A stretch of DNA of 64,000 nucleotides from Acidobacteriota bacterium (GCA_046726795.1 JBKPBH010000027.1:4215-68214), one strand, 5' to 3'. Numbered from the stretch's first letter, positions 1 to 57,219 are shown. Numbers and translations: made by a program. The notes: generated by a model not told the origin, from the sequence alone.

Positions 1-298
1 AGCGGGCACCGTGACGGACAAGATGGCGCCGGTGCTGCGCAAGATCTATGACCAGATGCCCGAGCCCAAGTGGGTCATCTCCATGGGGGTCTGCGCCTCT
101 TCGGGAGGGTTCTACCGCGCCTACCACGTCACCCAGGGGATCGACGAGATCATCCCGGTGGACGTCTACGTGCCCGGCTGTCCTCCCACGCCCGAGGAGC
201 TGATGTACGGGATCTTCGAACTGCAACGCAAGATCCGGTCGGGCGAGATGTCGCGGGACAGCCGGTCGGCGAAGCGGGCGGCGGAAAGACCCGCTTGA
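1..298 (+). CDS. nuoB: NADH-quinone oxidoreductase subunit B, C-terminal fragment (5' end outside window)
   Basis: ORF 11..298 has the NuoB C-terminal motifs ([22 protein letters not shown]); the frame is open to the window edge. Confidence 0.9.
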
Positions 299-2025
299 GT
301 GCCGTCGCGTCTCCTTCCCTTTCCGCTCCGGCGGAGCGGATCCGCGAGCGCCTTTCCTCCTCGCCCTTGTCTGAGAGGGTCCAGGTCCGGGACCTGGACC
401 TGCCCACTCTCGAGGTCTCTCCGGCCGACTGGCCCGCGCTGGCCCGGTGGCTGCGGGACGATCCCGAATGCCGCTATGACCTCTTCCTCGACCTCGCCGG
501 CGTGGACAACCTGCGGAGGCCGGGACAGAAGGCCCGCTTCGAAGCGGTCGTCCATCTCCACTCACTGCCACGCAACGAGCACGTTCGTGTCAAGGTCCTC
601 CTGCCCGACGGCGCACCTCCTTCGCTTCCGACGGTTCGCGAGGTCTGGCCCGCCTCCGATTGGTTCGAGCGAGAGGCCTACGACCTCTTCGGGTTCGACT
701 TCCCGGGGCACCCCAACCTGCGCCGCATCCTGTGCCACGACGCCTTCGTCGGGCACGCGCTGCGCAAGGACTATGCGCCCGGACAGCGCTGGTTCGCGGC
801 GGAAGAGGACCTGAAGATGCCCCCCTGGGCGCTCGAGACGGGCGCCCACGCCGGGCACTTCGAGACGCAGACCCTGTCGATCGGTCCGTCGCATCCGGCC
901 ACCCACGGGATCATTCACCTGATCGCCCGGCTGGACGGAGAGCGCATCACCCGCGCCGAGACGCAGATCGGCTATCTCCACCGCTGCTTCGAGAAGATGT
1001 CCGAGACGCACACCTGGAACGGCGTCATTCCGTACGCCGACCGGTTGAACTACGTCTCGGCCATGAACAACGGCGTGGGCTACGTCCGGACCGTCGAGAA
1101 AATGCTCGGGATCGAGATCCCGGACCGCGGCGTGCTCGTGCGCACGATTCTCTCGGAGTTCTCGCGCATCATGGACCACTGCGTCAACATCGGAGCGAAC
1201 CTGGTGGACATCGGAGCGCTGACGAACTTCTGGTACCTCTACCAGCCGCGCGAGACGATCTACGACTTGCTCGAGGCCTGCTGCGGCGCCCGGCTGACCG
1301 TGTCCTACGTGCGCGTCGGAGGGCTCGCGATCGACGTCCCCGAGGACTTCGTGCCTCGCTGCCGGAGCCTCCTCGAGTCCATCCCGAAGTTCTTAGACGA
1401 CGTGGACCGCCTCGTCACGAACAACCGGATCGTGCGAGGCCGCCTCCAGGGCACCGGCGTCGTCTCTCGAGAGGACGCGGTCGCCTGGGGATTGACGGGT
1501 CCGATGCTACGCGCCTCCGGAGTCCCGTACGATGTCCGCCGCTCCCGTCCCTACGACTTCTACGACCGGTTCGACTGGGACATCCCGGTCTCCTCTGACG
1601 GCGACAGTTTCTCGCGCTATCTCGTCCGCATGGAGGAGATGCGCCAGTCGCTCTCGATCATCCGGCAGGCCCTGGAGATCTTCCCCGAGAAGGGCCCCGT
1701 CAACTCCAGCGACTGGCACGTCGTCCTGCCGCCCAAAGACGCCGTCTACCACGACATGGAATCGCTCATCTACCACTTCAAGCTGGTCATGGAGGGGATC
1801 AAGGTCCCCCGGGGCGAACGCTACGAATGGGTCGAGGGGGCCAACGGGGAGCTCGGCTTCTACGCCATCTCGGAGGGGTCGGGCGGCCCCTACCGGCTGA
1901 AGGTGCGCCCTCCGTGCTTTCCCATGATGGCGGCATTCGAGAAGATCGTGGTCGGCGGCACGATCTCCGATGCCATCGCGACGCTCGGGACCCTGAACAT
2001 CATCGCGGGAGAGCTCGACCGGTGA
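295..2025 (+). CDS. nuoCD: NADH-quinone oxidoreductase fused subunit C/D
   Basis: N-terminal half is NuoC-like ([24 protein letters not shown]), C-terminal half is NuoD-like ([11 protein letters not shown]...[33 protein letters not shown]). Start taken at TTG 295 overlapping the nuoB stop; no in-frame ATG before residue ~170. Confidence 0.88.
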
Positions 2026-2030
2026 GCGGT

Positions 2031-2681
2031 GTGGTGGACGTGAGAGCGCGGGTCGGGAAGCTGACGCTCGCGCAGCGCCTCTACCTGCCGCAGGTCCTGG
2101 CGGGCATGCGGGTCACGATCCGCCACTTCCTGCGCAACCTCTTCGCGATCCGCCGGCTCCCGACGATCCTCTATCCCGAACAGAGGCGCGACTACTCCGA
2201 CCGCTTCCGCGGCAAGCACATCCTGAAGACACGCGAGGACGGGACCCTGAAGTGCGTGGCCTGCTACATGTGCGCGCAGGTCTGCCCGGCCGAGTGCATC
2301 ACGATCGTGGCCGGGGAGCACCCGAGGATCGCCTACGAGAAGTATCCGGTCGTCTTCGATATCGACATGCTGCGCTGCGTCTTCTGCGGCTTCTGCGTGG
2401 ACGCCTGTCCCAAGGACGCCATCTGGATGTCCCGCAACTACGAGATGGCGTTCTTCAACCGCCAGGAGGCGATCTTCGGAATCGACAAGCTGATCGAGAA
2501 GCCGGGGATCCCGGTCAAGGACGGCTACGGCTACCGCCCCTACTATCCGGGCGACGGCACCGTGCCTCCCGCCGACGCGTCCACGACCTCGGTGACGCCG
2601 GGGGACGGCGAGCGCGAGGAGCTGCGCGGCCGCCTGCCCGTCTTTCGTCCGTCGGCGCCCGGGCTCGCGGCCAAGGGGTAA
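2031..2681 (+). CDS. nuoI: NADH-quinone oxidoreductase subunit I (2x[4Fe-4S] ferredoxin)
   Basis: Two CxxCxxCxxxCP motifs (CVACYMCAQVCP, CVFCGFCVDACP). Start is ambiguous among GTG 2022/2031/2034/2040, with GTG 2022 overlapping the nuoCD stop. Confidence 0.88.
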   Translation: MVDVRARVGKLTLAQRLYLPQVLAGMRVTIRHFLRNLFAIRRLPTILYPEQRRDYSDRFRGKHILKTREDGTLKCVACYMCAQVCPAECITIVAGEHPRIAYEKYPVVFDIDMLRCVFCGFCVDACPKDAIWMSRNYEMAFFNRQEAIFGIDKLIEKPGIPVKDGYGYRPYYPGDGTVPPADASTTSVTPGDGEREELRGRLPVFRPSAPGLAAKG

Positions 2682-2806: not shown

Positions 2807-5023
2807 TCAGGGCATCTTCTCCACCCGCACCAAGGCGTTGTAGTCGGGTTCACCGGATTGCTCGTCCAGCGCCGTGCCCGACAGCAGGCCCATTCCCTCG
2901 GGCCAGTGGACGGCGAGGTTGCCGGGCTTGATGGGCGAGATCCTGATGCGGCCCTGGAAGATCCCCGAATCCGACGACAGCCGCACGGGGTCCCCGTCGG
3001 CGAGCGAGAGCCGGATGGCGTCGTCGGCGCTCATCAGGACATCGTGGCGGGAGGCGCCGGTCAGGGGATCGGTCTCGCGGTGGACCATCGAGTTGAACTG
3101 CTTGCCGCGACGGGTCGAGAGACGAAAGAGGCCGTTCGAGAACGCGCGACGGGGGAGAGCCACGGCCGAGAAGCGCGCCTTGCCCCCCGGCAGGGGGAAG
3201 CGGCCGTCCGCGTAGAGACGCTCGCCGCCCCACTGGACCTGATCCCCCTGTTTCGAGAGAGTCTCGATCCCCGCGTAGAGAGGAACGGCGCGGACGATCT
3301 CCTCGCGGATCGCCTGCGTCGAAGCGAAGCGGATCCGGCCGGAGTCTTGGGGGCGTGCCCGCGCCGCGACCTCGCAGAGGACTTCCCACTCCGGCCGCGC
3401 GCCCGGAATGCGCCGGCCGGGGATCTCCGGCGAGTAGATGATGCGCCGCTCGGTCGAGGTCTCCGTGACGCCGCCCGGCGTCTCGTAGCGGGTCGCGGCC
3501 GGAAGGAGAAGAACCGTGTCGGAGGGCTCGACGAGCATGGCGCTCGACACCACGATGTCCTGGTGGACCCGAAGCCCCGGCCTCTCCAGCGCGGCGCGGC
3601 TGCGCGCCGCGTTCGGCAGGGTCTCTAAGAAATTGCCCCCGACGATCCAGAAGACGTCGAGGCGTCCCGCGGCGCTCGCCTCGACCTGCGCGACCGCCGG
3701 CAGTCCGGCCGAGCGCGGGGGCTCGAATCCCCAGACTCGCGCCCAGCGGTCGAGCGTCTTCCCGTCCACGTTCGGAACGCAGCCGACCTCGGCGCCCCCC
3801 TGGACGCCCGAGTGGCCCCGGATCGGAGTCAGGCCGGAGAAGGGCCGTCCCGGCAGACCTCGAGCGAGCGCGACGTTGACGAGCGCGCGGACCGTATCCA
3901 CGCCGTGCGCGTGCTGTGTCAGCCCCATCGCCCAGACGAATTGGGTCCGAGGATGTGCCAGCAGGAGGCGGGCGAAGCTCCGCATCGCCTCTTCCGTCGC
4001 GCCGCTCTCGCGAGCGAGATCCTCCCAGGACTGAGCCCGGACCGCCTCGGCCGCGCCTTCGAAGGCCTCCGTGTGGCCGCGCACGAAGTCCGCGTCCACG
4101 CCGCCTGGCTCTTTGAGCAGTGCCTTGAGGACGCCGTTGAAGAACGCGAGGTCTCCGCCGGTGTCCACGTCGAACCAGTGATCGGCCAGCCGCGTCCCGA
4201 AGAGCGCGCTCTCGAAGACCGACGGGACCCAGTAGCGCTCGAGCCCCGGCTCGCGGTAAGGGTTGACGACCGCGATCCGCGCCCCGTTCTTCTTCGCCAG
4301 GTGAAGGTACTTGGTCGTGACGGGCTGGTTGTTGGGGACGTTCGAACCCAGGAAGACGAGAAGATCGGCGCCGAGCCAGTCCCGGTAGCTCCCCGTCATC
4401 GCGCCGTGGCCGAGGGCCTGCTTCATCGCGGCCGTAGAAGCGGCGTGGCACAGCCGCGCGGAGTTGTCCACGTTGGCCGTCCCGAGGAATCGCGCAACCT
4501 TCTGGGCGGCGTAGTAGGTCTCGTTGGGGATCCCGCGCGAAGTCAGATAGAAGGCCACGCGTCCGGGATCGGCGGCGCGAAGTCTCGCAGCGGCGAGGTC
4601 CAGCGCCTCGCCCCAGCCGATCCGACGGAACCCCATTTCGCCCCGGCGCCGGATCATGGGCACGGGCAACCGTCCCATGTCCCGGAGCTCTTGCGAGGAG
4701 AGTCCCCGGAGACGCCCGGCGTCCTCGAGCCTCTCGGGATCGAGTGGGGGCATCGTGTTCAGCCGCATCAGCTCCAGCCGCACCATGCACAGGTGAGTGC
4801 CGTCGATCGTCCAATCCGAGAGGCCGGAGGTGCCGAGCGCGCAGCCGTCGCAGACACCCCGTTTCAGGATCCGCCAGGCGAAGGGGATCTGGTCCCGGTT
4901 CTCCCACACGATGCGCGCCATCTCGCGGAAATGCCGGGGGCCGGTCTCTTTGAGGCCGAAGGGGGATAAGGAGAACCAATGTGATCGGCGCAGGGGCATC
5001 CGGGGAGATTCTAGCGACTGCAA
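2807..5023 (-). CDS. Molybdopterin oxidoreductase, formate dehydrogenase-like (YdeP/FdhF-like alpha subunit)
   Basis: 738 aa; N-terminal Cys cluster ([29 protein letters not shown]), MGD-type domains, C-terminal beta-barrel typical of the Fdh-like YdeP family. Confidence 0.8.
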
Positions 5024-5045: not shown

Positions 5046-6089
5046 CTACCGCAGTTCCTCCATCATCTTCTCGAGGGCTTCGCGGCCGGGGCGGACGCGC
5101 TCCAGGGGAAGCGTCGCCAGGGGCTCCGCGGGCAGGTCGAGGAGAGCGAGGAAGTCCTTCTTTTGCGGCTCGACGTAGATCAGGCCCGTCAGGAACTCGC
5201 CCTTCTCCTGCGCCTCGTGGAGCAGATTGAAGGCGGCTCTCTTGTCGGTCGCGTCGTAGTCCTCGCGCAGCTTCTTCAAGCGGATGTGCGACCCGTCGTG
5301 CAACGTGACGTCCTGGGTCGTGCCCGGGTCGTAGTCCACGGTGATCTCGTCGAAGTAGGGGACGAAGCCGATTTCCTGGATCGGGATCTCGTGGTCCTTG
5401 GCCCACTTGTAGGACTTGGTCGAGTCCTCGTGGTTGTTGAAGGTGACGCACGGGGAGATGACGTCGAGGAGCGCGGTTCCGCGGTGCGAGATCGCGCCCT
5501 TCAACAGCGCCAGGAGCTGTTTCATGTCCCCCGAGAAGGAGCGCGCCACGTAGGCGCAGCCGAGCTCGATCGCCATCGCGCAGAGGTCGATCGCGGGCAG
5601 GTCGTTGACGACGCCGGTCTTCAGCTTCGATCCCAGGTCCGCGGTGGCCGAGAACTGCCCCTTCGTCAGGCCGTAGACCCCGTTGTTCTCGACGATGTAG
5701 ATCATCGGCACGTTCCGGCGCAGCAGGTGCATGAACTGCCCGGCCCCGATCGAGGCGGTGTCGCCGTCGCCCGAGACCCCGATCGACAGGAGCGTCGTGT
5801 TGGCCAGCATCGCCCCCGTCGCGACCGCCGGCATGCGGCCGTGAACGGCATTGAAGCCGTGGCCGCGGTCGGCGAAGTAGGCCGTCGTCTTCGAGGAGCA
5901 ACCGATGCCCGACATCTTGGCCGCTTTGTAGGGGGATACGCCCATTTCGTAGAAGGCCTGCGTGATCTGCCGGGTGATGACATCGTGCCCGCACCCGACG
6001 CAGAGCGTGGACTTCAACCCGCCGTACTCCTTGGTGGTCAGGCCGATGCGGTTGGTGGGAGGGGACTTGGGTTGGGCGACGGAGGACAT
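5046..6089 (-). CDS. korB: 2-oxoacid:ferredoxin oxidoreductase beta subunit (TPP-binding)
   Basis: Starts [11 protein letters not shown] (trimmed from the 806 aa ORF); TPP motif GDGD...[11 protein letters not shown]; its ATG overlaps the korA stop. Confidence 0.85.
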
Positions 6090-7939
6090 CACTTTTTCTC
6101 CCCGGCTTCGATCCCTTCGACCACCGTCTCGGCATCGATGGGAAAGCCGTCGTAATGGCGGAGCGAACGCAGCTTGGCCGAGTCCCCGGGGGGAAGCTCG
6201 AGCCGCAGGAGATCGAACATCTGGCCGTCGCGGTTCTGGTCCACGACGTAGATTCGGTCGTGGGACGCGACGAAGTCCGCGACCTCGTCTCCGATGGGAA
6301 GGGCCCGCAGGCGCAGGTAGTCCGTGCGGGTTCCCTTGCGCGAGAGGATCTCGCGGGCTTCCTGGATGGCGAAGTCGGAGGAGCCGTAGGCGATCAGGCC
6401 GATCCCCGACCCCGAGCCGTTGGAGAGGATGGGCCTGGGCACGAAACGGCGCGCCGTTTCGAACTTGCGGGCGAGCCGGTCCATGTTCGCCTTGTAGTCG
6501 TCGGGCTTCTCGGTGTACGTCGCCCGCTCGGAGTGGCCGGAGCCGCGGCAGAAATAGGCGGCCGCCGGGTTGTCGATCAAGCCGGGCAACGTACGGTACG
6601 GGATGCCGTCTCCCTCCACGTCCCTGTAGCGCGCGAACTCCTGGAACTTCCGGATGTGCTCCTTCAACTCCTCTTCGGTCCGGATCAGCTTTCCGCGGTC
6701 GACCGGCTTCTCGGGGTAGGCGAAGGGTTCTGCCATCCAGTTGTTCATCCCGAGGTCGAGATCCGTCATGATGAACACCGGCGTCTGGAAACGTTCGGCG
6801 AGGTCGAAAGCCTCCATGGCGAGTGCGTAGCACTCCTCGACCGAGCCGGGAATCACGAGGATGTGCTTGGCATCGCCGTGGGAGAGGAAGTAGGTCGAGA
6901 GGATGTCCCCCTGCATCGTCCGGGTCGGGAGCCCCGTCGAAGGGCCCACACGCTGCACATCCACGATGACGGCGGGGACCTCCGCGTAGTACCCGAGGCC
7001 TACGAACTCGGACATGAGCGAGATGCCGGGGCCGGACGTCGTCGTCATGGCCCGCGCGCCCGCCCAGCCGGCGCCCATGACCATGCCCGCCGCGGCCAGC
7101 TCGTCTTCGGCCTGCACGATCGCGTAGGTGGGCTTGCCCGTGACCGGGTCCTTCCGGAACCGCCGGCTGTACTCGATGAACGCCTCCGCGAGCGATGAGG
7201 ACGGCGTGATGGGGTACCAGGCGAGGACGTTGACGCCCGCCAGCACGCAGCCGATCGCGGTCGCGGCATTGCCGTCGATGATGATCTTGCCGGCCGTCTT
7301 GTTCATGCGCTCGAGCCGGTAGGGGTCCGTCCTGGTCAGATTCTCCTTCGCCCAGCCGAACCCGCCCTGGATGGCGTTCCAGTTGATTTCGACCGCCTTC
7401 TCCTTGCCCTTGAATTGCTTGACCACCGCCTTGCGGATCTCCTCCATGTCGATGTCGAGGAGCCATGCGGCCACGCCGACGTAGATCATGTTGATCGCGA
7501 GGCGCCGCAGCTTTCCGTCGTGCACGAGCTCCAGGACGAGCTTGGAGAAGGGGACGGGGTAGAGGTGCAGGTCGTCCCGCACTGACGTCAAGTTCAGGCT
7601 CTCCTCGTAGATGACCGCGGCGCCGGGGTGGACGGTCCGGACGTCCTCGTGGACCGTTTCGGGGTTCATGCAGATCAGGACGCCGACGTCGCGCCGGCGC
7701 GCGATGAAGCCCTCCTTGGAGGCCCGGATCGTGAACCAGGTCGGAAGTCCCTGGATGTTGGAAGGAAACAGGTTCTTGCCCGAGACGGGAATCCCCATCT
7801 GGAAGATCGACCGCATGAGGATGTTGTTCGAGGACATGCTCCCCGAGCCGTTCGCGGTGGCGACATGGATCGAGAAGTCGTTGACGACACTGGCGCCGCC
7901 CGCCTGTTCGAGGGTTTTTTCTTCAAGGACCGTGCTCAC
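6089..7939 (-). CDS. korA: 2-oxoacid:ferredoxin oxidoreductase alpha subunit
   Basis: KorA-like N-terminus (VNDFSIHVATANGSGSMSSNNIL). Start set at GTG ~7939, preceded by SD aaggag 7 nt upstream; the 40 codons upstream of it look non-coding. Confidence 0.82.
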   Translation of the reverse strand: MSTVLEEKTLEQAGGASVVNDFSIHVATANGSGSMSSNNILMRSIFQMGIPVSGKNLFPSNIQGLPTWFTIRASKEGFIARRRDVGVLICMNPETVHEDVRTVHPGAAVIYEESLNLTSVRDDLHLYPVPFSKLVLELVHDGKLRRLAINMIYVGVAAWLLDIDMEEIRKAVVKQFKGKEKAVEINWNAIQGGFGWAKENLTRTDPYRLERMNKTAGKIIIDGNAATAIGCVLAGVNVLAWYPITPSSSLAEAFIEYSRRFRKDPVTGKPTYAIVQAEDELAAAGMVMGAGWAGARAMTTTSGPGISLMSEFVGLGYYAEVPAVIVDVQRVGPSTGLPTRTMQGDILSTYFLSHGDAKHILVIPGSVEECYALAMEAFDLAERFQTPVFIMTDLDLGMNNWMAEPFAYPEKPVDRGKLIRTEEELKEHIRKFQEFARYRDVEGDGIPYRTLPGLIDNPAAAYFCRGSGHSERATYTEKPDDYKANMDRLARKFETARRFVPRPILSNGSGSGIGLIAYGSSDFAIQEAREILSRKGTRTDYLRLRALPIGDEVADFVASHDRIYVVDQNRDGQMFDLLRLELPPGDSAKLRSLRHYDGFPIDAETVVEGIEAGEKK

Positions 7940-8050
7940 CCATGAACTCCTTTTCCGTGCTCGTTTGGGGACCGCAGGAACCGGGAATGATACCAAACGA
8001 AGCCTTTTCAGGCGAAAACCGCGCTTAGAATCCAACCGGAGGTTCCGCGA

Positions 8051-10144
8051 ATGCATTTCCTCTTTCGCGCCGCGGGCGGCGCCCTTCTGCTCTTCCTGGT
8101 TCGGGACGCCTCGTGGGCCGCGTCGGGACGCCCCTTTCGGTTCGACGAGCTCGCGAGCGTCCGGCGCGTGGGGAGCTTCTCCCTCTCGCCCGACGGGCAG
8201 TGGGTCGCCTACTCAGTGGCAACGCCCGACGTGGAGGAGAACCGCATACGAACGGGGATCTGGATCCAGCCCGTGGCGGGGGGCGAAGCGCGAAAGCTGA
8301 CGTCCGGGGACAAGCGCGACTCGGACCCGAAGTTTTCTCCCGACGGAAAGAGGCTGGCGTTCCTCTCCAATCGCGACGGCGGCTCCCAGATCTACGTCCT
8401 CGACCTGGCGGGCGGGGAGCCCGTGAAGGCGAGCGCTTTTCCGATGGAAGTCCGCGGCTTCCGGTGGTCGCCCGATGGCGGGTTCTTCGTCTTCACCTCG
8501 GATGTCTTCCCCGACTGCGCCGACGCCGCCTGCAACGAGAAGAAGTCGAAGCAGCGGGAGAAGTCCAAGACGAAGGCCCGCGTGGCCGAGCGCCTCCTCT
8601 TCCGGCACTGGGACTCCTGGAAGGACGGCCTGCGGACGCACATCTGGAGGTCACCCGTCTCGGGGCCGGCCCCGGCGGCCGTGGACCTGACCCCCGGGGA
8701 TCGCGACGCTCCGCCCTTCTCCATCGGCGGCGGCGGCGACTACGACATCTCGCCGGACGGCCAGGATCTCGTCTACGCGTCGAACCCGGACAGGGTCGAG
8801 GCCCTCTCGACCAACGGCGACATCTGGATGGTCCCGTTCGACGCGAAGGGAAAGGCGCGGGACCTGACCGCCGCCAACAAGGCCTACGACGGCACGCCGA
8901 AGTTCTCTCCCGACGGAAAATGGATCGCGTACCGCTCGCAGAAGCGCCCCGGATTCGAATCCGACCGGTTCGCGCTCATGCTTCTCGAGCGGGCGACTGG
9001 AAAGATCCGGTCCCTGACCGAAGACTTCGACGGAATGGTCGAGTCGTTCACCTGGGCGCCGGACTCCCGCTCGCTCTGGTTCACCTCCCACGTCGGCGCC
9101 CGCGGGACGATCTTCCGCGTCGGTCTCGAGGGAAAGCCCGCGGAGATCTGGCGCGGAGGCTCGGCCTCCGACCTGACGGCGTCTCGGGACGGGCGGAAGA
9201 TCTACTTCTCGTCGAGCTCGCTCTCCCGCGCTCCCGAGATCTGGAGCGCCGGCGCGGACGGGAAGGGCGCCGCCGCGGTCACCCACGTCAACGACGGGCT
9301 CTGGAGGGAATTCGAGATGGGAGAGGTCTCCGAGCGTGTGACCCGCTCGGCGGACGGGCGGGATCTACAGGCCTGGCTCGTGAAACCCCCGGGCTTCGAT
9401 CGCTCGAAGAGACACCCGGCGGTTTTCCTGATTCACGGCGGCCCGCAGGGCGCCTGGACGGATTCCTGGTCCACCCGCTGGAATCCCCAGGTCTGGGCGG
9501 CCTACGGCTACGTCGTCTACGCCGCCAACCTGCGCGGCTCGACCGGTTTCGGGCAGAAGTTCGTGGACGAGATCTCGGGTGACTGGGGAGGTAAGGTCTA
9601 CGAAGACCTGATGCGCGCCGCCGATGACCTCGAATCGCTCCCCTTCGTGGACAGGACCCGCGTCGGAGCTGCCGGCGCCTCATACGGGGGTTACATGATC
9701 GATTGGATCGCCGGCCACACGAGCCGGTTTGCGGCGCTCGTCTCCCACGATGGCGTCTTCGACACGGTCTCCTCGGGCCTCGAGACCGAGGAGCTCTGGT
9801 TCCCGGCCTGGGAGTTCAAGGGTTTCCCCTGGGACCCGGGCTCGGTCTATCAGAAATGGAACCCCATGCTCTCGGCCGACAAGTTCAAGACGCCGACCCT
9901 CGTCATCACGAGCGAGCGGGATTTCCGTGTTCCCTTCGGCCAGGGCCTCCAGTTCTTCACCGCTCTGCAGGTGCGCGGGGTGCCGTCTAAGCTCCTGACC
10001 TTCCCCGACGAAGGCCACTGGGTCTTGAAGCCCGGCAACTCCCGCCTCTGGCACGCCACGGTGATGGACTGGCTCCATCGCTATCTTGGCGGCGCCGCCC
10101 CCGACCCCGGGGCTCTGGACACCGCCTACAGCGTGACGAGGTAG
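8051..10144 (+). CDS. S9 family serine peptidase (prolyl oligopeptidase / acylaminoacyl-peptidase-like), secreted
   Basis: Signal peptide, beta-propeller region with repeated SPDG motifs, C-terminal alpha/beta-hydrolase with GASYGGYM nucleophile elbow and D/H. Confidence 0.85.
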   Translation: MHFLFRAAGGALLLFLVRDASWAASGRPFRFDELASVRRVGSFSLSPDGQWVAYSVATPDVEENRIRTGIWIQPVAGGEARKLTSGDKRDSDPKFSPDGKRLAFLSNRDGGSQIYVLDLAGGEPVKASAFPMEVRGFRWSPDGGFFVFTSDVFPDCADAACNEKKSKQREKSKTKARVAERLLFRHWDSWKDGLRTHIWRSPVSGPAPAAVDLTPGDRDAPPFSIGGGGDYDISPDGQDLVYASNPDRVEALSTNGDIWMVPFDAKGKARDLTAANKAYDGTPKFSPDGKWIAYRSQKRPGFESDRFALMLLERATGKIRSLTEDFDGMVESFTWAPDSRSLWFTSHVGARGTIFRVGLEGKPAEIWRGGSASDLTASRDGRKIYFSSSSLSRAPEIWSAGADGKGAAAVTHVNDGLWREFEMGEVSERVTRSADGRDLQAWLVKPPGFDRSKRHPAVFLIHGGPQGAWTDSWSTRWNPQVWAAYGYVVYAANLRGSTGFGQKFVDEISGDWGGKVYEDLMRAADDLESLPFVDRTRVGAAGASYGGYMIDWIAGHTSRFAALVSHDGVFDTVSSGLETEELWFPAWEFKGFPWDPGSVYQKWNPMLSADKFKTPTLVITSERDFRVPFGQGLQFFTALQVRGVPSKLLTFPDEGHWVLKPGNSRLWHATVMDWLHRYLGGAAPDPGALDTAYSVTR

Positions 10145-10161
10145 GTCCGGGGAGCGCGCCG

Positions 10162-11091
10162 TCAGAAGCCGATCTGCGCGGCCAGGCCGTGGCGGATCGG
10201 CACGATCTCCAGGGTCGCCTTCGACAGGACTCCCTTTTCCTGCTCGCCGTGGCGGTGAACGAGGAAGTGGCCGACGGCGGTGCCCAGAAACGCCCCCGCC
10301 ACGACGTCGCTCGCGAAGTGATCGCGCGTGTTGATGCGGTCGAACGCGACGACGGTGGCCAGGCCGTAGGCGATCACCGGGATCGGCCAGCTCTTCGAGC
10401 GGGCGGCGATGACGGAGGCGACGGCGAAGGCTTCGGTCGTATGGCCTGAGGGAAAGGAGTCGTGTTTCGAGCCGGGGACGAACACGCTCCGTCCGTCAGA
10501 CTCTGAAGGTCTCTCCCGGCCGAACAGCCGTTTCAAGACACCGGTGTTCAGCACGTAGGCGAGAATCCCGGCTTCGACCGCGTCGCGCCCTGTCTCGCGC
10601 ATGTTCTCGTGGTTGAGGAGCGTTCCCGCGATCCAGAGGCTTCCCGAGAGCTGGAAGCCGTATTGCGCGCCGAGAGGCGTGCTGGCGCTGGAGATACTGT
10701 TGGTGACGTGGGAGCGGTTCTTCTGGGCCGCGCGGTCGATGCTGCGGTCGGCGAACATGAGGCCTCCGACGATCACGACGCTGCCGGCCAGTTTCTCCCA
10801 ATCCTTCTTGTCCCAGGTGATCGGCGCCTTCACCAGGGCCACCGAGTCGGAGCCGTAGCGCCTGACCTCGCGCACGAGGGCGCCATAAAAGCGTGCCGCA
10901 AGCTTCGGCTTGGGCTGTGGCGCGGGCTCGGGCGGGGGTTCCTGGATCGTCGGGTCGATCGCGGGACACTCATCCGGAGGGGAGGTCGCCTCTTCCTGCG
11001 CCGCCAGGCCTGCGGCCAGAGACAGGGAGAAGGCCACGGCCAGGGCCGCCCCACGCCACTTCAGCCGCCGGGGGCCCTCCCTTCGACTCAC
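10162..11091 (-). CDS. PAP2 family phosphatase (phosphatidic acid phosphatase type 2-like), secreted/membrane
   Basis: PAP2 motifs KRLFGRERP, PSGHT, SRDHFASDVVAG. Start trimmed to GTG 11091 giving signal peptide VSRREGPRRLKWRGAALAVAFSLSLAAGLAAQ; the upstream 165 codons of the ORF look non-coding. Confidence 0.7.
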   Translation of the reverse strand: MSRREGPRRLKWRGAALAVAFSLSLAAGLAAQEEATSPPDECPAIDPTIQEPPPEPAPQPKPKLAARFYGALVREVRRYGSDSVALVKAPITWDKKDWEKLAGSVVIVGGLMFADRSIDRAAQKNRSHVTNSISSASTPLGAQYGFQLSGSLWIAGTLLNHENMRETGRDAVEAGILAYVLNTGVLKRLFGRERPSESDGRSVFVPGSKHDSFPSGHTTEAFAVASVIAARSKSWPIPVIAYGLATVVAFDRINTRDHFASDVVAGAFLGTAVGHFLVHRHGEQEKGVLSKATLEIVPIRHGLAAQIGF

Positions 11092-18296: not shown

Positions 18297-18322
18297 AGTA
18301 AATAAATATACAGTTATTTACT
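18297..18322. promoter_or_regulatory. AT-rich imperfect palindrome immediately upstream of the tetR ATG (candidate TetR operator/promoter)
   Basis: AGTAAATAA-ATATACAG-TTATTTACT lies 4-29 nt upstream of the tetR start and overlaps the last codons and TAA of polX. Confidence 0.5.
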
Positions 18323-20077
18323 AAAGGTCAAGGGGGAATCTGGAAGCGGGCCGCCGCGCCGTTTTTCGAGCCATTGCTGCAGCTCGTCCGCCGTCATGGC
18401 GTTCACGGTGGCGTCCGGGCCGACCCAGCCCTTTCGGGCAATCCCGAGGCCGAGCTCGACTAAGCCGAGCTCCGCGACGGAATGGGCGTCCGGGCCGATC
18501 GAGAAAAGGGCTCCCTTCTCCACGGCGCGGCGGACGTGCCTCCAGTCGAGGTCGAGCCTCTCCGGCGAACCGTTGATCTCCAGGGCGCAGCCCGACTCGG
18601 CCGCGGCGTCGAGGACGGCCTCGATGTCCGCGTCCACGCCCTCGCGCGTTAAGAGCAGGCGGCCCGTCGGGTGGCCGAGCACCGAGACACGCGGGTTGCG
18701 CACGGCTCGCAGCAGCCTCGCCGTCTGCTCCGCGCGGGGAAGGCCGAAGCGCGAGTGAATCGAGGCAACGACGAGGTCGAAGACGCCGAGGAAATCGTCC
18801 CCGAAGTCGATCGAGCCATCCGACAGGATGTCGGCTTCCGTCCCGTGAAAGATACGGAAGCCGGGGGATCTCCGCTGCAGGGCCCGGATCTCCTCGCGCT
18901 GCGCGAGAACGCGCCCCTCGTCCAGGCCTCCGGCGTACGCGGCGGTCTTGCTGTGGTCGGTGATCGCGACCCAGGAGTAGCCGGCGGCTCGGGCCCCTCC
19001 GACCATGTCCTCGAGCGTGTCGCGGCCGTCGGACTCGACCGTGTGGACGTGGACAATGCCCCGCAGGTCTTCGCGTGAGACGAGCCGGGGCAACTCCCCC
19101 CGCTCGGCCGCCTCGATCTCTCCTCGGCCTTCCCGCAGCTCCGGCTCGATGTAGGGAAGACCCAGGGCCGCGTAGATCGCCGCTTCGCTGGCGCCGGGGA
19201 GGGCCTCCCCGGGGGGCTGGGTCCGGAACAGACCGTACTCGTTCAACTTCAGGCCCATCCTCTTCGCACGCCCGCGCAGCTCCACGTTGTGCTCCTCGGA
19301 GCCCGTGAAATACAGCCACGCCGCGGGAAACTCCGCTTCCGACACGATCCGAAGATCGGCGGCGAGACCGTCGGTGAACCGCACGGAGGTTTTCGTCGGC
19401 CCGTCCGCCGTGATGTCGGCGACCCGCGGCAGGCGGCAGAAGGCGTCGGCCAGCGCTCCTGGATCCGGAGAGGCGGCGACGATGTCGATGTCGCGAACGA
19501 TCTCCTTTCGGCGTCGCAGGCTGCCCGCGATCTCGATCCGGGAAGCGAGCCCGGCGCTCTCCAGAGCGGCGAGCGCCTCCTCGGCGCGCCGGCGGGCCCG
19601 GCTGTAGCGGTGAAGGCCGGCCGAGGAGCGCAGGAGCGCGATTCCCTTCAGGATCCGTTCGGCGGTGCGGGAGCCGAACCCTTTGACGCCGGCGAGTCTC
19701 CCTTCTCGGCATGCGGCTTCCAGCGCTTCCAGCGAGTCAATGCCGAGTGTCTCGTGGAGTTGCCGCGCCTTCCGCGCGCCCAGCCCCGGGATCGTCAAAC
19801 ACTCTCGAAGGCCGGGAGGAAACCGCGCGCACAACTCCTCGTAGTAGGGGAGCGAGCCGGTCCGCACGAGGGTCTCGATGTTGCCGAAGAGCCCCGCCCC
19901 GATGCCCGGGACATCCAGGAGGTCGCGGCTGGCGACCGCGGCTTCCAGGTCTCCCGGAAAGGCCAGAATCGCCTGCGCCCCCATCTCGTAGGCCCGCACC
20001 CTGAACCGATTCTCGCCGGCCAGCTCCAGCATCGCCGCGATCTCAGCGAGCACGCGAGCGACCTCTCCGCGGTCCAT
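18314..20077 (-). CDS. polX: DNA polymerase X family protein with C-terminal PHP domain
   Basis: Trimmed to MDRGEVARVLAEIAAMLELAGENRFRVRAYEMGAQAIL (Pol beta-like N-term) plus a PHP histidinol-phosphatase-like C-term (VHVHTVESDG...HS); alternative ATG at 20101. Confidence 0.8.
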   Translation of the reverse strand: MDRGEVARVLAEIAAMLELAGENRFRVRAYEMGAQAILAFPGDLEAAVASRDLLDVPGIGAGLFGNIETLVRTGSLPYYEELCARFPPGLRECLTIPGLGARKARQLHETLGIDSLEALEAACREGRLAGVKGFGSRTAERILKGIALLRSSAGLHRYSRARRRAEEALAALESAGLASRIEIAGSLRRRKEIVRDIDIVAASPDPGALADAFCRLPRVADITADGPTKTSVRFTDGLAADLRIVSEAEFPAAWLYFTGSEEHNVELRGRAKRMGLKLNEYGLFRTQPPGEALPGASEAAIYAALGLPYIEPELREGRGEIEAAERGELPRLVSREDLRGIVHVHTVESDGRDTLEDMVGGARAAGYSWVAITDHSKTAAYAGGLDEGRVLAQREEIRALQRRSPGFRIFHGTEADILSDGSIDFGDDFLGVFDLVVASIHSRFGLPRAEQTARLLRAVRNPRVSVLGHPTGRLLLTREGVDADIEAVLDAAAESGCALEINGSPERLDLDWRHVRRAVEKGALFSIGPDAHSVAELGLVELGLGIARKGWVGPDATVNAMTADELQQWLEKRRGGPLPDSPLTFSK

Positions 20078-20110
20078 CGATCGATTGTAGCGGGGTAACA
20101 TGGCGCGCCG

Positions 20111-20935
20111 ATGCGCGTGGACCTGCACAGCCACTCTTCCGTCTCCGACGGCCTCGACTCGCCGGCCGAGCTGGTCCGGAAGATGAAGACGGCAGGAATC
20201 GAGACCTTCGCGCTGACCGATCACGACACGCTGCAAGGGCTGCCGGAGGCGCGCGCCGAAGCGGAGGCAGTCGGCATCGAGCTCGTCCCGGGCGCCGAGG
20301 TCTCGGCCGATTTCCAGGGGCAGGACGACGTCCACATCCTCGCCCTGTTCGTGGACGAGACGAACCCCCGGTTCAACGCGCGCCTGGCCGAGCGTCAGGA
20401 GAATCGGCGCCGGCGGGGGGAGCTCATGGCGGAAAAGCTGATGGCCGCGGGCTACCCGCTCGACCTCGACGCGATCCGCCGCGACGTCGGCGGCGGCGTC
20501 TGGGGGAGGCCGCACCTGGCGCGCGCTCTCGTCCGAGCCGGGCACGCCGCCTCCAACGAAGACGCCTTCGAGCGGTTTCTGGGCCGCGAGCGCCCCTGGT
20601 ACGTGCCTTCGACGAAATGGGCGGCGGCTGACGTGATCGAGGCGGTCCGCGAGGCCGGCGGAGTTTCCTCGCTCGCGCACGCCGTCTGGTACAAGGACGC
20701 GGAGGGTCTCATCCGCGCGCTGGTCGAGGCGGGACTCGACGCCATCGAAGTCTTCCATCCCGACCACGCGGCGGCGGAGGAGGCGCGGTTCGGGGGCCTC
20801 GCTCGGGAGCTCGGCCTGCTCGTGACGGCCGGCAGCGACTTCCACGGCGCTCCGGAGGGGCGCAAGCACCCGGGCGGCGTGGTCGGCACCGCGGAAATGC
20901 TGGGCCTTCTGCGAGGCCGGGCGCGTCCCCGATGA
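20111..20935 (+). CDS. PHP domain phosphoesterase (TrpH/YciV-like)
   Basis: MRVDLHSHSSVSDG...ALTDHDT PHP motifs; divergent from polX with an intergenic gap of <=33 nt. Confidence 0.7.
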   Translation: MRVDLHSHSSVSDGLDSPAELVRKMKTAGIETFALTDHDTLQGLPEARAEAEAVGIELVPGAEVSADFQGQDDVHILALFVDETNPRFNARLAERQENRRRRGELMAEKLMAAGYPLDLDAIRRDVGGGVWGRPHLARALVRAGHAASNEDAFERFLGRERPWYVPSTKWAAADVIEAVREAGGVSSLAHAVWYKDAEGLIRALVEAGLDAIEVFHPDHAAAEEARFGGLARELGLLVTAGSDFHGAPEGRKHPGGVVGTAEMLGLLRGRARPR

Positions 20936-21315
20936 TCCCGCCGGAAGCACCGGTACGTCCCTTCTGGGTGCTTCTCGTGCAACGGGGGGCGCCGGACGCC
21001 CTCTACGAGGCCGCCGCGATGACGGCCGCGGCGGTCTCGCTCGGGATCGACGTCACCGTGATCTGGTTCGACGCGGCGCTCGAAGCGCTGGCCTCGGGAC
21101 GCCTGGCGCAGGACGAAGGGGAGACCGGTCACGCCGGCCGCCTGCTTGCCGAGGCGCGAGAGGCAGGCGGCGGCGTGCGCTTCCTCGCCTGTTCCGCCTC
21201 CATGGTCAATCGAAGGATCGATCGCGAGGCCGTCGCCGGGTGTGTGGACGACGTCGTCGGCTGGCCGACGGCGATCGCGCTCATCCGCTCCGCCGAGCGC
21301 TCCTTCGTCTGGTAG
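20932..21315 (+). CDS. DsrE/DsrF/TusD-like small protein
   Basis: 127 aa; FWVLLVQRGAPD...RFLACSASMV has a DsrE-like fold signature with a conserved Cys; ATGA overlap with the PHP gene. Confidence 0.45.
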   Translation: MIPPEAPVRPFWVLLVQRGAPDALYEAAAMTAAAVSLGIDVTVIWFDAALEALASGRLAQDEGETGHAGRLLAEAREAGGGVRFLACSASMVNRRIDREAVAGCVDDVVGWPTAIALIRSAERSFVW

Positions 21316-51595: not shown

Positions 51596-53764
<2,169 letters not shown>

Positions 53765-53810: not shown

Positions 53811-53897
53811 ATTTTGGATTCTGGATTTTGGATCTTGGATTGCGACAGGAGATCCCGGCTCAATCCAAAATCTAAAATCGAGAATCTAAGATCGTGC
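53811..53897. repeat. AT-rich stem-loop with tandem heptamer arms between exbD (3' end) and hppA (5' end)
   Basis: ttttgga ttctgga ttttgga tcttgga ...aggagatcccggc... tccaaaa tctaaaa tcgagaa tctaaga; the right arm ends at the exbD stop codon. Confidence 0.6.
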
Positions 53898-54310
53898 TAT
53901 TGGATGGGCACCGTCTCCAGCACGATCCCGATGTTCTTGGCGCCGGCGTTGCGAACAATGTCCATGACCTTGATGACCTCGCCGTAGTTGGCCGCGTCGT
54001 CTCCTGAGAAGAAAACCGTCTTGTCGCGCCGGTTCTTCAAGATGTCCCCGACCTGCTGTGCAAGCTGCTGGGGGGTCACCTGCTGCTTGTTCAGGAAGAT
54101 CTGATTCTGGGGCGTGAGCGAGACGATTACCTGGTCCACCAGGGACTGCGGCTGGTCCACCGTCGCCTTCGGCGGGACCTTCACGTCGTATCCCATCTGC
54201 AGGAGAGGCGTGATGACCATGAAGATGATCAGGAGCACGAGGACGATGTCCACGAGCGGGGTGATGTTGATGTCGCTCTTGTAGTCGCCGGATCCGCCGC
54301 CGGGAACCAT
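53897..54310 (-). CDS. exbD: Biopolymer transport protein ExbD/TolR
   Basis: SDINITPLVDIVLVLLIIFMV TM followed by a periplasmic domain. Confidence 0.85.
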   Translation of the reverse strand: MVPGGGSGDYKSDINITPLVDIVLVLLIIFMVITPLLQMGYDVKVPPKATVDQPQSLVDQVIVSLTPQNQIFLNKQQVTPQQLAQQVGDILKNRRDKTVFFSGDDAANYGEVIKVMDIVRNAGAKNIGIVLETVPIQ

Positions 54311-54371
54311 GCCGAGTTTCTCCTTGGGCGGGCGTTGCTGGTTGCGGGGACAGTCAGAATCCCTGCGAACG

Positions 54372-54809
54372 TCAGCTCTTGCCCGCTCCCTTCTGCTTCT
54401 TGTCGGCGATCAGACCGACGTTCTGGAAGCCGGCCTCCTTGGCCAACTTCATGACTTCCTTGACGTCGCCGTACTTCAGCCTCTGGTCCGCCTTGATGAT
54501 GATGTCCGCGCTGGGCGACCGCTGGTAGAGCTCGTCCAGCCGCTTCTGGACGTCGTCCTTGGAGAGCTTGTCCGCTTCGAAATAATAGGCCGGAGGCGTC
54601 GCCCATCCGACCGTGAGCAGCTTCTGACTCGCGTTCTCGGGTTTCTTGTCGGGGTTGTCGGTGGTCGGGAGCTGGACGGCGATCCCCTTCTGGAGAAGGG
54701 GCGTGACCACCATGAAAATGATCAGGAGCACGAGGCAGACGTCCACCAGAGGGGTGACGTTGATATCGCTCTGGAGCTTGTCGCGGCTGCTCGCGCCGCC
54801 CATCGCCAT
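54372..54809 (-). CDS. exbD: Biopolymer transport protein ExbD/TolR (second paralog)
   Basis: SDINVTPLVDVCLVLLIIFMV. Confidence 0.85.
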   Translation of the reverse strand: MAMGGASSRDKLQSDINVTPLVDVCLVLLIIFMVVTPLLQKGIAVQLPTTDNPDKKPENASQKLLTVGWATPPAYYFEADKLSKDDVQKRLDELYQRSPSADIIIKADQRLKYGDVKEVMKLAKEAGFQNVGLIADKKQKGAGKS

Positions 54810-54830
54810 GGCCGGTCCTCCCCGGGTCCC

Positions 54831-55535
54831 CTAAGAGGCTCGAGCGCCCAGCTTGACGCCGGCGCCGCGCCGCTTGATGAAGTAGTCGAGCAGTGTCGAG
54901 GCCGAGTTGGACATCTCGACCTGGAACCGTTCGATCTTGTTCATGAAGATGTTGAAGAGCCAGACCGCCGGGATCGCGACGAAGAGGCCCAGGGCCGTCG
55001 TGATGAGGGCCTCGGCGATGCCGGTCGACACCGCCGCGATACCACCCGAGCCGGTCAGGGCCATGCCGCGGAAGGCGTTGATGATGCCGATGACCGTTCC
55101 GAACAGCCCGATGAACGGAGCCGTCGTCCCGATCGTGGCCAGACCCGAGAGCCCCTTCTTCATGTCCGCCGTCGTGATCAGGGCCTCCCGCTCGATCGCG
55201 CGCTCGGCCGCCTCGATCGGGTCGTGGCCGGGCGTGTCGGCGGACCCGGTCGTGAGGTCGTGCTGGAACTCGTAGAGACCGGCCGAAACGACGCGGGCCA
55301 GGTGGCTGTTCTTGAAGCGCTTCGAGGAGTCGATCGCCTCCTGGAGCTTGTCCTGCTTCAGGTAGCCCGTCACGAGCGTCGCGAACTGGAGCGACTGCTT
55401 CTTGGCCTTGCCGTAGTAGATGAACCTCTCGACGGCCACCGTCAGCGAATAGATGGACATCAAGATGAGCAGGATGCAGACGCCCTTGGCCAGAGGCGTC
55501 ATCGAATTCCAGAGATCCACAGGGTTAAAACTCAT
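54831..55535 (-). CDS. exbB: MotA/TolQ/ExbB proton channel
   Basis: Trimmed to MSFNPVDLW; three TM helices, GTVIGIINAF motif; SD aaggag. Confidence 0.85.
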   Translation of the reverse strand: MSFNPVDLWNSMTPLAKGVCILLILMSIYSLTVAVERFIYYGKAKKQSLQFATLVTGYLKQDKLQEAIDSSKRFKNSHLARVVSAGLYEFQHDLTTGSADTPGHDPIEAAERAIEREALITTADMKKGLSGLATIGTTAPFIGLFGTVIGIINAFRGMALTGSGGIAAVSTGIAEALITTALGLFVAIPAVWLFNIFMNKIERFQVEMSNSASTLLDYFIKRRGAGVKLGARAS

Positions 55536-55621
55536 GAAGCGCTCCTTCTCGTTCTCCTTGTTCTCAAGCCGTCCAGGCTTCCGGGCTCCATCTCCCCGGC
55601 GACCCGGCAACCCCCCTCATC

Positions 55622-56356
55622 CTAGTGCAAGTTGAACGTCACGGTCACGGTCAGGTACACGCGCACCGCCCTCCCGTTGAGGGTGGCGGGCTTGTATCTC
55701 CATTGCTGCACCGCGCGGACCGCGGAGGCATCCAGCAGCGGATTGACGGACTTCAAGACCTTCACGTCCTCGACGCTGCCGGAAGCCGTGATGATGGCCT
55801 CCAGGATGACGACGCCTTCCATCCGGGCCTTGCGCGCCGCCTCGGGATAGGTCGGCTCGACGCGGTTGGTCAGGACGGGGGCCTTGACCTCGCCTCCGAC
55901 TCGAAGCGGCTCGCCTTCGCCCGTGCCGGGTCCCGTGCCGCCCGGCACTCCGCCCAGGACGCCGCCCGGCACCCCGCCTTCGACGCCGCCCGGGACGCCG
56001 CCTTCCACCCCGGCCGGCGCCTCCGGCTCGGGCGCGGAGAGCGGCTTGGGGATGTTCTCGGGAATGATGGTCGGCGCCACCATCTCCGTCGGCCGGACCG
56101 GCACCTGCTTCTGGACCTCGGGCGCCTTGGGCTTGGGCGCCGGGGCAGCCGCCGGGGGCGGGGGGGGTGGGGGGGGGGCCGAGGCGTAGAAGGTGACCGG
56201 AATCGGAGGCTCCGGCACGTCTTCGACGAACCAGATCGAGGCGCCGAGCGCGATGCCGATGACGATCGCGTGGATGGCGATCGACACGGGCAGGGTCACG
56301 GCCTTGCGCGAATCCCCCTTGTGAGGAGCCGATTCGATCAGCGACTCTTCGAACAT
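55622..56356 (-). CDS. tonB: Energy transducer TonB
   Basis: N-terminal TM, Pro-rich spacer (PPPPPPPPAAAPAPKPKAPE) and TonB C-terminal domain. Confidence 0.8.
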   Translation of the reverse strand: MFEESLIESAPHKGDSRKAVTLPVSIAIHAIVIGIALGASIWFVEDVPEPPIPVTFYASAPPPPPPPPAAAPAPKPKAPEVQKQVPVRPTEMVAPTIIPENIPKPLSAPEPEAPAGVEGGVPGGVEGGVPGGVLGGVPGGTGPGTGEGEPLRVGGEVKAPVLTNRVEPTYPEAARKARMEGVVILEAIITASGSVEDVKVLKSVNPLLDASAVRAVQQWRYKPATLNGRAVRVYLTVTVTFNLH

Positions 56357-56385
56357 GCTTGTCCTCCAGACCCCTCAGGACACCG

Positions 56386-57219
56386 TTACTTCTTAGCCGG
56401 TTCCGGCGTCGGAGTCGTGGCGAGACTCTTCTTACGCAATTCGAGTGCCTGCTCGCGGTACTTGTCGGCGGTCGCGATGTCCTCCTGCTTCTTGGCGTCG
56501 TCGGTCTCGATCTTTGCCCGCTCGCGGTAGAGCAGGTTCATGTACGTCAGGGCGTCGAAGTTGTCCGGCTTGATCTTCAGGGCAGTCTGCAGGGCGTTCA
56601 TGCCTTCGTCGATGATCTTGGCGCGCGTGGCCGGGTCGATCTCGGGGAAGTGATAGGAGCGGTCCCAGGCCTGAACTCCCACCATGACGTAGGGCTCGGG
56701 GTTGTTGGGCTCCAGGGCCGCCCGCTTCTTCTCCCACTCGAGGCCCTGGTTGAAGTCCCCCTTCTTGAAGTACATGGCCGCGACCGACGTCATGGCCTTG
56801 ACGTCGTTGGGGTCCTTCTTCAGGAGGTCCTGGTAGAAGAGGATGGCATCGTCGTAGCGGTCGATCGCCAGGTACATGGAGACAAGGAACTCCCGGACCT
56901 TCTTGTCAGTGGGGTAGTCTTTGAGGTACGTCTGCAGCTCCTGGATCGCCTTGTTAGCGAACTCGAGGTCCTTGGGGTGCCTGGACCCGGGCTGGTACAG
57001 GGCCATGTAGGTCTCGCCAATGAACTTGTGGAGCTTCGTCTCGCCCGGGTCCAAACGCAGCGCCTCCTGGTAGTTGGCCAGCGCGGCCTGATACTGCGTC
57101 GCCTTGAAGAACTCGTTGCCCTTCTTGATCTCCTGCCGGGCCTTGATCTTGTTGCAGCCCGACAGCCCCGCAGCCGCCATCAGAAGAATGGCCGCCGCGG
57201 CCAGACGTGGACTCCGCAT
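56386..57219 (-). CDS. TPR-repeat lipoprotein, first gene of the exbBD-tonB operon
   Basis: Lipobox LSGC followed by TPR repeats. Confidence 0.7.
   Translation of the reverse strand: MRSPRLAAAAILLMAAAGLSGCNKIKARQEIKKGNEFFKATQYQAALANYQEALRLDPGETKLHKFIGETYMALYQPGSRHPKDLEFANKAIQELQTYLKDYPTDKKVREFLVSMYLAIDRYDDAILFYQDLLKKDPNDVKAMTSVAAMYFKKGDFNQGLEWEKKRAALEPNNPEPYVMVGVQAWDRSYHFPEIDPATRAKIIDEGMNALQTALKIKPDNFDALTYMNLLYRERAKIETDDAKKQEDIATADKYREQALELRKKSLATTPTPEPAKK

Follow-up and report, generated by a model that had tools for sequence, protein, structure and literature searches.

We analyzed a window of 64,000 nucleotides from an Acidobacteriota bacterium of the class Thermoanaerobaculia (GCA_046726795.1 JBKPBH010000027.1:4215-68214), by which we mean the whole stretch of DNA, and focused on the small cluster of complex I (nuo) genes with which it begins. 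The G+C content of the window is 67.7%. Positions 2-2681 hold three co-directional reading frames, identified as nuoB, a fused nuoCD and nuoI:

2 to 298, plus strand: nuoB, the C-terminal 98 codons (Pfam PF01058 Oxidored_q6, 1.3e-22; NCBIfam NuoB, 1.2e-40)
295 to 2025, plus strand: fused nuoCD, 576 amino acids (Complex1_30kDa PF00329, 4e-38; Complex1_49kDa PF00346, 6e-107)
2022 to 2681, plus strand: nuoI, 219 amino acids (TIGR01971; Fer4 domains; two 4Fe-4S motifs, N6a and N6b)

The truncation of nuoB reflects only the edge of the window, since the start of the gene lies outside it; the remaining fragment was 94% identical over the C-terminus to the full-length NuoB (183 amino acids) of a related locus (L001). 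In the fused protein the NuoC domain occupies approximately residues 40-162 and the NuoD domain approximately residues 190-576. Both junctions of the cluster have a 4-base start/stop overlap: the TTG start codon of nuoCD at 295 overlaps the nuoB stop codon as TTGA, and the GTG start codon of nuoI at 2022 overlaps the nuoCD stop codon as GTGA. nuoB, nuoCD and nuoI make up a compact operon with translational coupling. At its C-terminus, NuoI has a Pro/Gly-rich extension of ~40-60 amino acids (GYRPYYPGDG...PGDGER...), which was partly conserved in most orthologs; these are 217-240 amino acids long as compared to 180 in E. coli.

We searched by tblastn with two independent query sets, one made up of all 13 Nuo proteins of E. 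coli and the other of 12 from a Myxococcota operon, and neither detected any nuo gene in the 64-kb window beyond B, CD and I. The original prediction, which was made from the DNA sequence of the window, had described a cluster of the Q-module subunits B, C, D and I only, with nuoI placed after the fused nuoCD without nuoE, F, G or H in between and with nuoJ-N absent downstream because a convergent gene follows nuoI. The reading frames and the tblastn searches bore out all of these points, and the convergent gene was found to encode a molybdoenzyme (2807-5023, minus strand). A Pfam scan of 27 other predicted proteins of the window (of ~40 candidate open reading frames) returned housekeeping genes only.

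The family assignment was examined with curated protein models. The NuoD part scored 472.5 bits against TIGR01962 (cut-off 459.35), NuoI scored 121.1 bits against TIGR01971 (cut-off 113.05), and the NuoB fragment exceeded the cut-off of NF005012 despite its truncation (138.7 versus 116). Models for NDH-1 (NdhH, 351.6 versus a cut-off of 583; ndhI, 63.7 versus 302) and for Fpo (FpoD, 293 versus 600; FpoI, 69 versus 180) remained below their cut-offs, and hydrogenase subunit models scored far below their curated cut-offs on the NuoD and NuoI of the window. The best relatives of NuoCD with solved structures were Aquifex NuoCD2 (7q5y) and E. coli NuoCD, together with the 49-kDa subunits of mitochondrial complex I; these scored ~340-400 bits, while hydrogenase large subunits reached only ~133-137 bits. 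At the positions corresponding to the [NiFe] motifs RxCGxC and DPCxxC, the NuoD domain reads GPSHPATHG and AGELDR, with no Cys in either. A [NiFe] hydrogenase was ruled out since the ligand Cys residues are absent. That NuoD lacks these ligands, and that the cluster is of the complex I type rather than a hydrogenase, had both been proposed in the original prediction and are upheld by the motifs, the model scores and the Fe-S and quinone-site residues described below.

We next to these scores considered the residues expected at the cofactor and quinone sites, using the orthologs long enough to align together with the E. coli subunits (n=72-78 per subunit). The quinone-site residues His220 and His224, in the beta1-beta2 loop, and Tyr273 of NuoD (numbering of the 596-amino-acid E. 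coli protein) were invariant in 78 NuoCD orthologs. The Cys residues of NuoB that hold cluster N2, at E. coli positions 63, 64, 129 and 158 and including the tandem CC, were kept in 73-74 of 74 orthologs; two of the four lie within the nuoB fragment of the window (GVCASSGG and PGCPP). In NuoI, none of the eight ligand Cys of the two 4Fe-4S clusters varied among the window protein and 72 orthologs. As judged from these alignments, the invariance indicates purifying selection for canonical quinone chemistry, and the cluster is predicted to encode a complex I-type Q-module. Because intact and coupled genes keep every functional residue across the class, the quinone chamber is probably in use.

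To place the operon among its relatives, one genome per GTDB species was scanned, and 80 loci were recovered with a NuoCD 58-90% identical to that of the window. Nearly all came from metagenome-assembled genomes (MAGs) labelled Thermoanaerobaculia or Acidobacteriota, with a few from Holophagales or Ca. Sulfomarinibacteraceae; the Sulfomarinibacteraceae MAGs (L072, L073 and L078) also contain the stand-alone B-CD-I unit. nuoB, nuoCD and nuoI were adjacent throughout these loci, and overlaps like those in the window were usual in the closer relatives. In most of the loci that extend far enough (~60 of the 80), the gene upstream of nuoB is the peptide deformylase gene (def). The gap between def and nuoB is ~35-200 bp in the closest relatives, which leaves no room for nuoA. 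No match to NuoA, E, F, G, H or J-N was found by tblastn with either query set within flanks of up to 10 kb at the 80 loci. The check for an upstream nuoA suggested in the original prediction, when run in these relatives, thus returned def instead, and the arrangement named there as counter-evidence, with nuoH and nuoJ-N just upstream in a rearranged single operon, is contradicted by the same loci. The order def-nuoB-nuoCD-nuoI is a conserved, class-wide, stand-alone layout.

Several variants of this layout were noted. In one distant locus (L057), the one in which this interval was examined, a 73-amino-acid BFD-like [2Fe-2S] protein is encoded between def and nuoB (8914-9135; PF04324, 1.8e-11). 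The def-nuoB gap is large enough for such a gene in other distant loci (Holophagales-like, ~60% identity), and the BFD-like gene is absent from this position in close relatives. Some Acidobacteriota relatives have NuoB-C-D triple fusions of 771-817 amino acids (L070, 9287-11740; L085, 10001-12316, P0122), and nuoI apparently lies directly next to the triple fusion in L070. Two contigs of one MAG (L048 and L065) match each other at 98.6% identity along def-nuoB-nuoCD and part precisely where nuoCD ends (from ~7058 onward in L048); beyond that point L048 has an unrelated open reading frame in place of nuoI, perhaps through an insertion at strain level or a chimeric assembly. That the two contigs represent two paralogs was ruled out by the high identity and by the position of the divergence. 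Name look-ups of representative clusters did not find a second, unfused NuoD from Thermoanaerobaculia.

We also searched 1.84 billion representative proteins for homologs and looked up the genomic context of six relatives. Among the matches listed, the NuoCD family fell into two clusters with 54-56% identity, of which one is a B-C-D triple fusion, followed by others at 43-49%; the nearest named relatives by sequence were from Blastocatellia, Eisenbacteria, KSB1, Myxococcota and Binatia, and not from Chloroflexi. The triple-fusion relative L085 has the order nuoBCD-nuoE-nuoF-nuoG-nuoI, with no membrane subunit within 10 kb; two unannotated open reading frames of 144 and 149 amino acids are interleaved in this operon. 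L085 was assigned to Blastocatellia since its NuoF matches Blastocatellia proteins (the best 120 matches were all from this class, at 82% identity or more). This Blastocatellia relative, which keeps nuoE, F and G, also has a nuoI of 219 amino acids with the C-terminal extension. One further contig from outside the class reads nuoB-CD-E-F-G-I, GCA_041443065.1 reads nuoCD-E-F-G-I, and a Binatia MAG (L087, 7193-13544) reads nuoB-nuoG-nuoI-nuoCD, after which comes a 613-amino-acid fusion of nuoE and nuoF. A KSB1/Deferribacteres MAG runs from nuoA through nuoI and then ends, and a Myxococcota MAG has a classical contiguous nuo operon. The hydrophilic arm was therefore encoded apart from the membrane arm in four of the six contexts, and peripheral-arm-only operons are common among the nearest relatives. 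Compared to these, the Thermoanaerobaculia operon looks like a peripheral-arm operon from which nuoE, F and G would have been removed or relocated. In a plasmid collection, only proteobacterial operons were found among the matches.

Taken together, the operon most likely encodes the Q-module part of a split nuo gene set, the remaining complex I genes being located elsewhere in the genome; we put the probability of this explanation at roughly 0.8. The quinone chamber of complex I requires NuoH and NuoA, as known structures indicate, and we infer that the module assembles with a membrane arm whose genes lie at a different locus. Electrons would enter at the NuoI 4Fe-4S clusters N6a and N6b and pass from NuoI to cluster N2 on NuoB, and quinone would be reduced in the NuoD domain at the site with the His and Tyr residues, which would become complete only once NuoB and NuoCD rest on NuoH and NuoA in the membrane. 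Genes for the membrane arm (nuoA, H and J-N) and for the electron-input module would sit elsewhere in the genome, with input coming either from NuoEFG or from a ferredoxin docking on NuoI. Blastocatellia include aerobic isolates whose electron transport chain, NADH dehydrogenase included, is reported to be complete, so a split layout is compatible with a working enzyme. In the marine Acidobacteriota MAGs of Flieder et al., Nuo complexes were reported throughout, those of Ca. Sulfomarinibacter included. Three points weigh against a split gene set. Membrane-arm or N-module genes of Thermoanaerobaculia were located neither within the 64-kb window nor within the flanks of up to 10 kb at the 80 loci. 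The supplement of Flieder et al. contains no Nuo subunit list, and the literature on Nuo in this class comes without subunit lists. Finally, the operon is without nuoE, F and G relative to the sister lineages, and the locus thus does not point to one particular electron donor.

The layout is an ordinary one, of a known kind with published precedent in other bacteria. Split nuo operons are a recognised category, for which the survey by Degli Esposti (PMC4758237) gives Bdellovibrio and cyanobacterial NDH-1 as examples. A separated nuoB-CD-I with a fused nuoCD is described for the '2M' complex I of Chloroflexi (Chadwick et al. 2018, cited after PMC7117926). According to that account, the Chloroflexi locus resembles the window in having B, a fused CD and I in the same order and away from membrane-arm genes; it belongs to another phylum, however, and the closest sequence relatives listed here are not Chloroflexi. 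The 2M enzyme is recognised by its partner membrane-arm cluster, which has a second nuoM and encodes a NuoL whose lateral helix is extended (Chadwick et al. 2018); among the genes examined, what the window has in common with it is the split B-CD-I layout only. Our literature search found no published description of the B-CD-I layout in Thermoanaerobaculia, and Acidobacteria go unmentioned in Spero's review and in that of Degli Esposti.

Other known systems resemble the window to varying degrees. The operons of Blastocatellia, GCA_041443065.1, Binatia and the further contig contain the closest NuoCD outside the family (43-54% identity) and likewise have no membrane subunit nearby, but they keep nuoE, F and G, whereas the operon of the window is confined to the Q-module. 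E. coli nuoA-N and the Myxococcota operon (nuoA-B-CD-E-F-G-H-I-J-K-L-M, the stored locus ending within the twelfth gene) share with it homologous subunits, a fused nuoCD and the same cofactor and quinone-site residues; unlike the window, they have all subunits in one transcription unit, with nuoI after nuoH. In cyanobacterial and chloroplast NDH-1 and other split sets, complex I genes are likewise dispersed over several loci and the N-module may be absent, but the NdhH and NdhI models scored far under their cut-offs on the window proteins and the gene groupings differ. Group 4 membrane-bound [NiFe] hydrogenases (Hyc/Hyf, Ech and Mbh) have homologous small, large and ferredoxin-like subunits; they differ from the window in the NiFe-ligand Cys, which its NuoD lacks, and in similarity (~133-137 versus 340-400 bits).

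Downstream of nuoI lies a spacer of 125 bp, followed by genes on the opposite strand:

2683 to 2808, no strand assigned: long imperfect intergenic hairpin (RNA folding free energy -62.6 kcal/mol, z = -3.0 versus shuffled sequences)
2807 to 5023, minus strand: FdhF/YdeP-family molybdopterin oxidoreductase (TIGR01701, 589.7 bits, above the cut-off)
5046 to 6089, minus strand: korB (Pfam TPP_enzyme_C and PFO_beta_C; the evidence for korAB as a whole also includes POR and POR_N)
6089 to 8056, minus strand: korA, forming a 2-oxoacid:ferredoxin oxidoreductase with korB (Pfam POR and POR_N among the evidence for korAB)

The original prediction had placed a palindromic terminator in the spacer. The palindrome was recovered as the long imperfect hairpin, but it has no T-tract and no intrinsic terminator was called in the spacer, so that only the first half of the description held. 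The hairpin is likely the end of both convergent transcripts. It contains the motif GTCATTCTGAGCGAAGCGAAGAATC at 2691-2715, which occurs once in the window and reads 'CHSERSEES' in one frame; it resembles what we take to be a palindromic repeat element common in soil-bacterial genomes. The molybdopterin oxidoreductase gene is convergent with nuoI and marks the operon boundary rather than a member of the operon. A homolog was found near nuoI, downstream of it, in only ~10 of the 80 related loci and was absent from the closest metagenomic relative (L082); the gene looks like a variable insertion between nuoI and korB. korAB, also convergent with nuoI, is syntenic downstream in most Thermoanaerobaculia loci. 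In L082, where korBA lies at 7398-10288, the stop codons of nuoI and kor are just 22 bp apart. Other genes of the window, all on the minus strand, have no link to the nuo genes: a membrane H+-pyrophosphatase (51596-53764; 886 bits), an ExbB/ExbD/ExbD/TonB cluster with a TPR protein (53897-57219) and a PolX-type DNA polymerase with a PHP domain (18314-20950).

The conserved korAB neighbour bears on the question of which electron donor such a split enzyme would use. It is possible, though we hold it only tentatively, that the genome has no NuoEFG at all and that B-CD-I together with a membrane arm makes an 11-subunit, ferredoxin-fed enzyme, as in photosynthetic NDH-1, with reduced ferredoxin supplied for example through KorAB. 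This would be a sub-case of the split gene set and concerns the electron donor only. nuoE, F and G stand between CD and I in the sister operons and are absent here and at all 80 loci, cultured Thermoanaerobaculia are strict anaerobes, and 11-subunit enzymes are widespread. On the other hand, convergent genes do not share a transcript, what keeps korAB next to nuoI may be mere conservation of gene order, and nuoEFG may simply have relocated. NuoD and NuoI fit the Nuo models and not those for NdhH/NdhI or Fpo, and the C-terminal extension of NuoI is shared with the Blastocatellia relative that retains EFG. The korAB neighbour and the loss of EFG are only a hint, but they fit a ferredoxin-fed 11-subunit enzyme in largely anaerobic bacteria. 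A different partner for the module, which we consider unlikely, would be a modified complex I, such as a 2M enzyme with a second NuoM, whose membrane-arm cluster is without B, CD and I; or the operon could be a dedicated paralog beside a complete nuo operon. In the published literature found, the only separated nuoB-CD-I with a fused nuoCD is the one of the Chloroflexi 2M enzyme, and genomes with several complex I isoforms are common. The nearest sequence relatives are not Chloroflexi, however, and the features that define a 2M enzyme rest on membrane genes outside the loci examined. As for a paralog, the sole MAG with two matches (L048 and L065) has copies so nearly identical that they point to an assembly variant.

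The remaining alternatives dispense with the membrane arm altogether. Since no membrane subunit gene was found within 10 kb at the 80 loci or in the 61 kb downstream in the window, and since the unit is strongly conserved on its own, B-CD-I could be a free-standing Q-module, a soluble oxidoreductase or one attached to some other partner. Thermoanaerobaculia would then have no Nuo membrane arm, and the unit, at the membrane surface or bound to a partner other than Nuo, would pass electrons to quinone or a different acceptor, perhaps fed by KorAB through ferredoxin. We regard both the free-standing module and this consequence for the class as very improbable. Selection on the invariant quinone-site residues and on the tandem-Cys N2 site is expected only if NuoH completes the chamber, and the sister lineages with peripheral-arm-only operons include the aerobes reported to have a complete respiratory chain. 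We know of no such soluble Q-module. Still more remote is the idea of a relic left to decay after the loss of the other complex I parts. The locus encodes just three or four of the 14 subunits, but the frames are intact and coupled, identity is 58-90% class-wide and every ligand residue is kept; a pseudogene or decaying remnant was accordingly rejected.

The split gene set remains the explanation that we favour, and for annotation the plain names nuoB, nuoCD and nuoI suffice. The only surprising outcome, if true, would be a Q-module in a genome without a membrane arm. The Acidobacteriota of this class are abundant in soil and sediment; with the hydrophilic arm in one operon and the membrane arm in another throughout the class, as well as in several lineages close to it, tools that judge complex I complete from one contiguous cluster would under-call it in these bacteria. 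Blastocatellia, with BCD-E-F-G-I, and Thermoanaerobaculia, with B-CD-I, form a series that would offer a natural case in which relocation of the N-module can be set against its loss as a lineage turned anaerobic.

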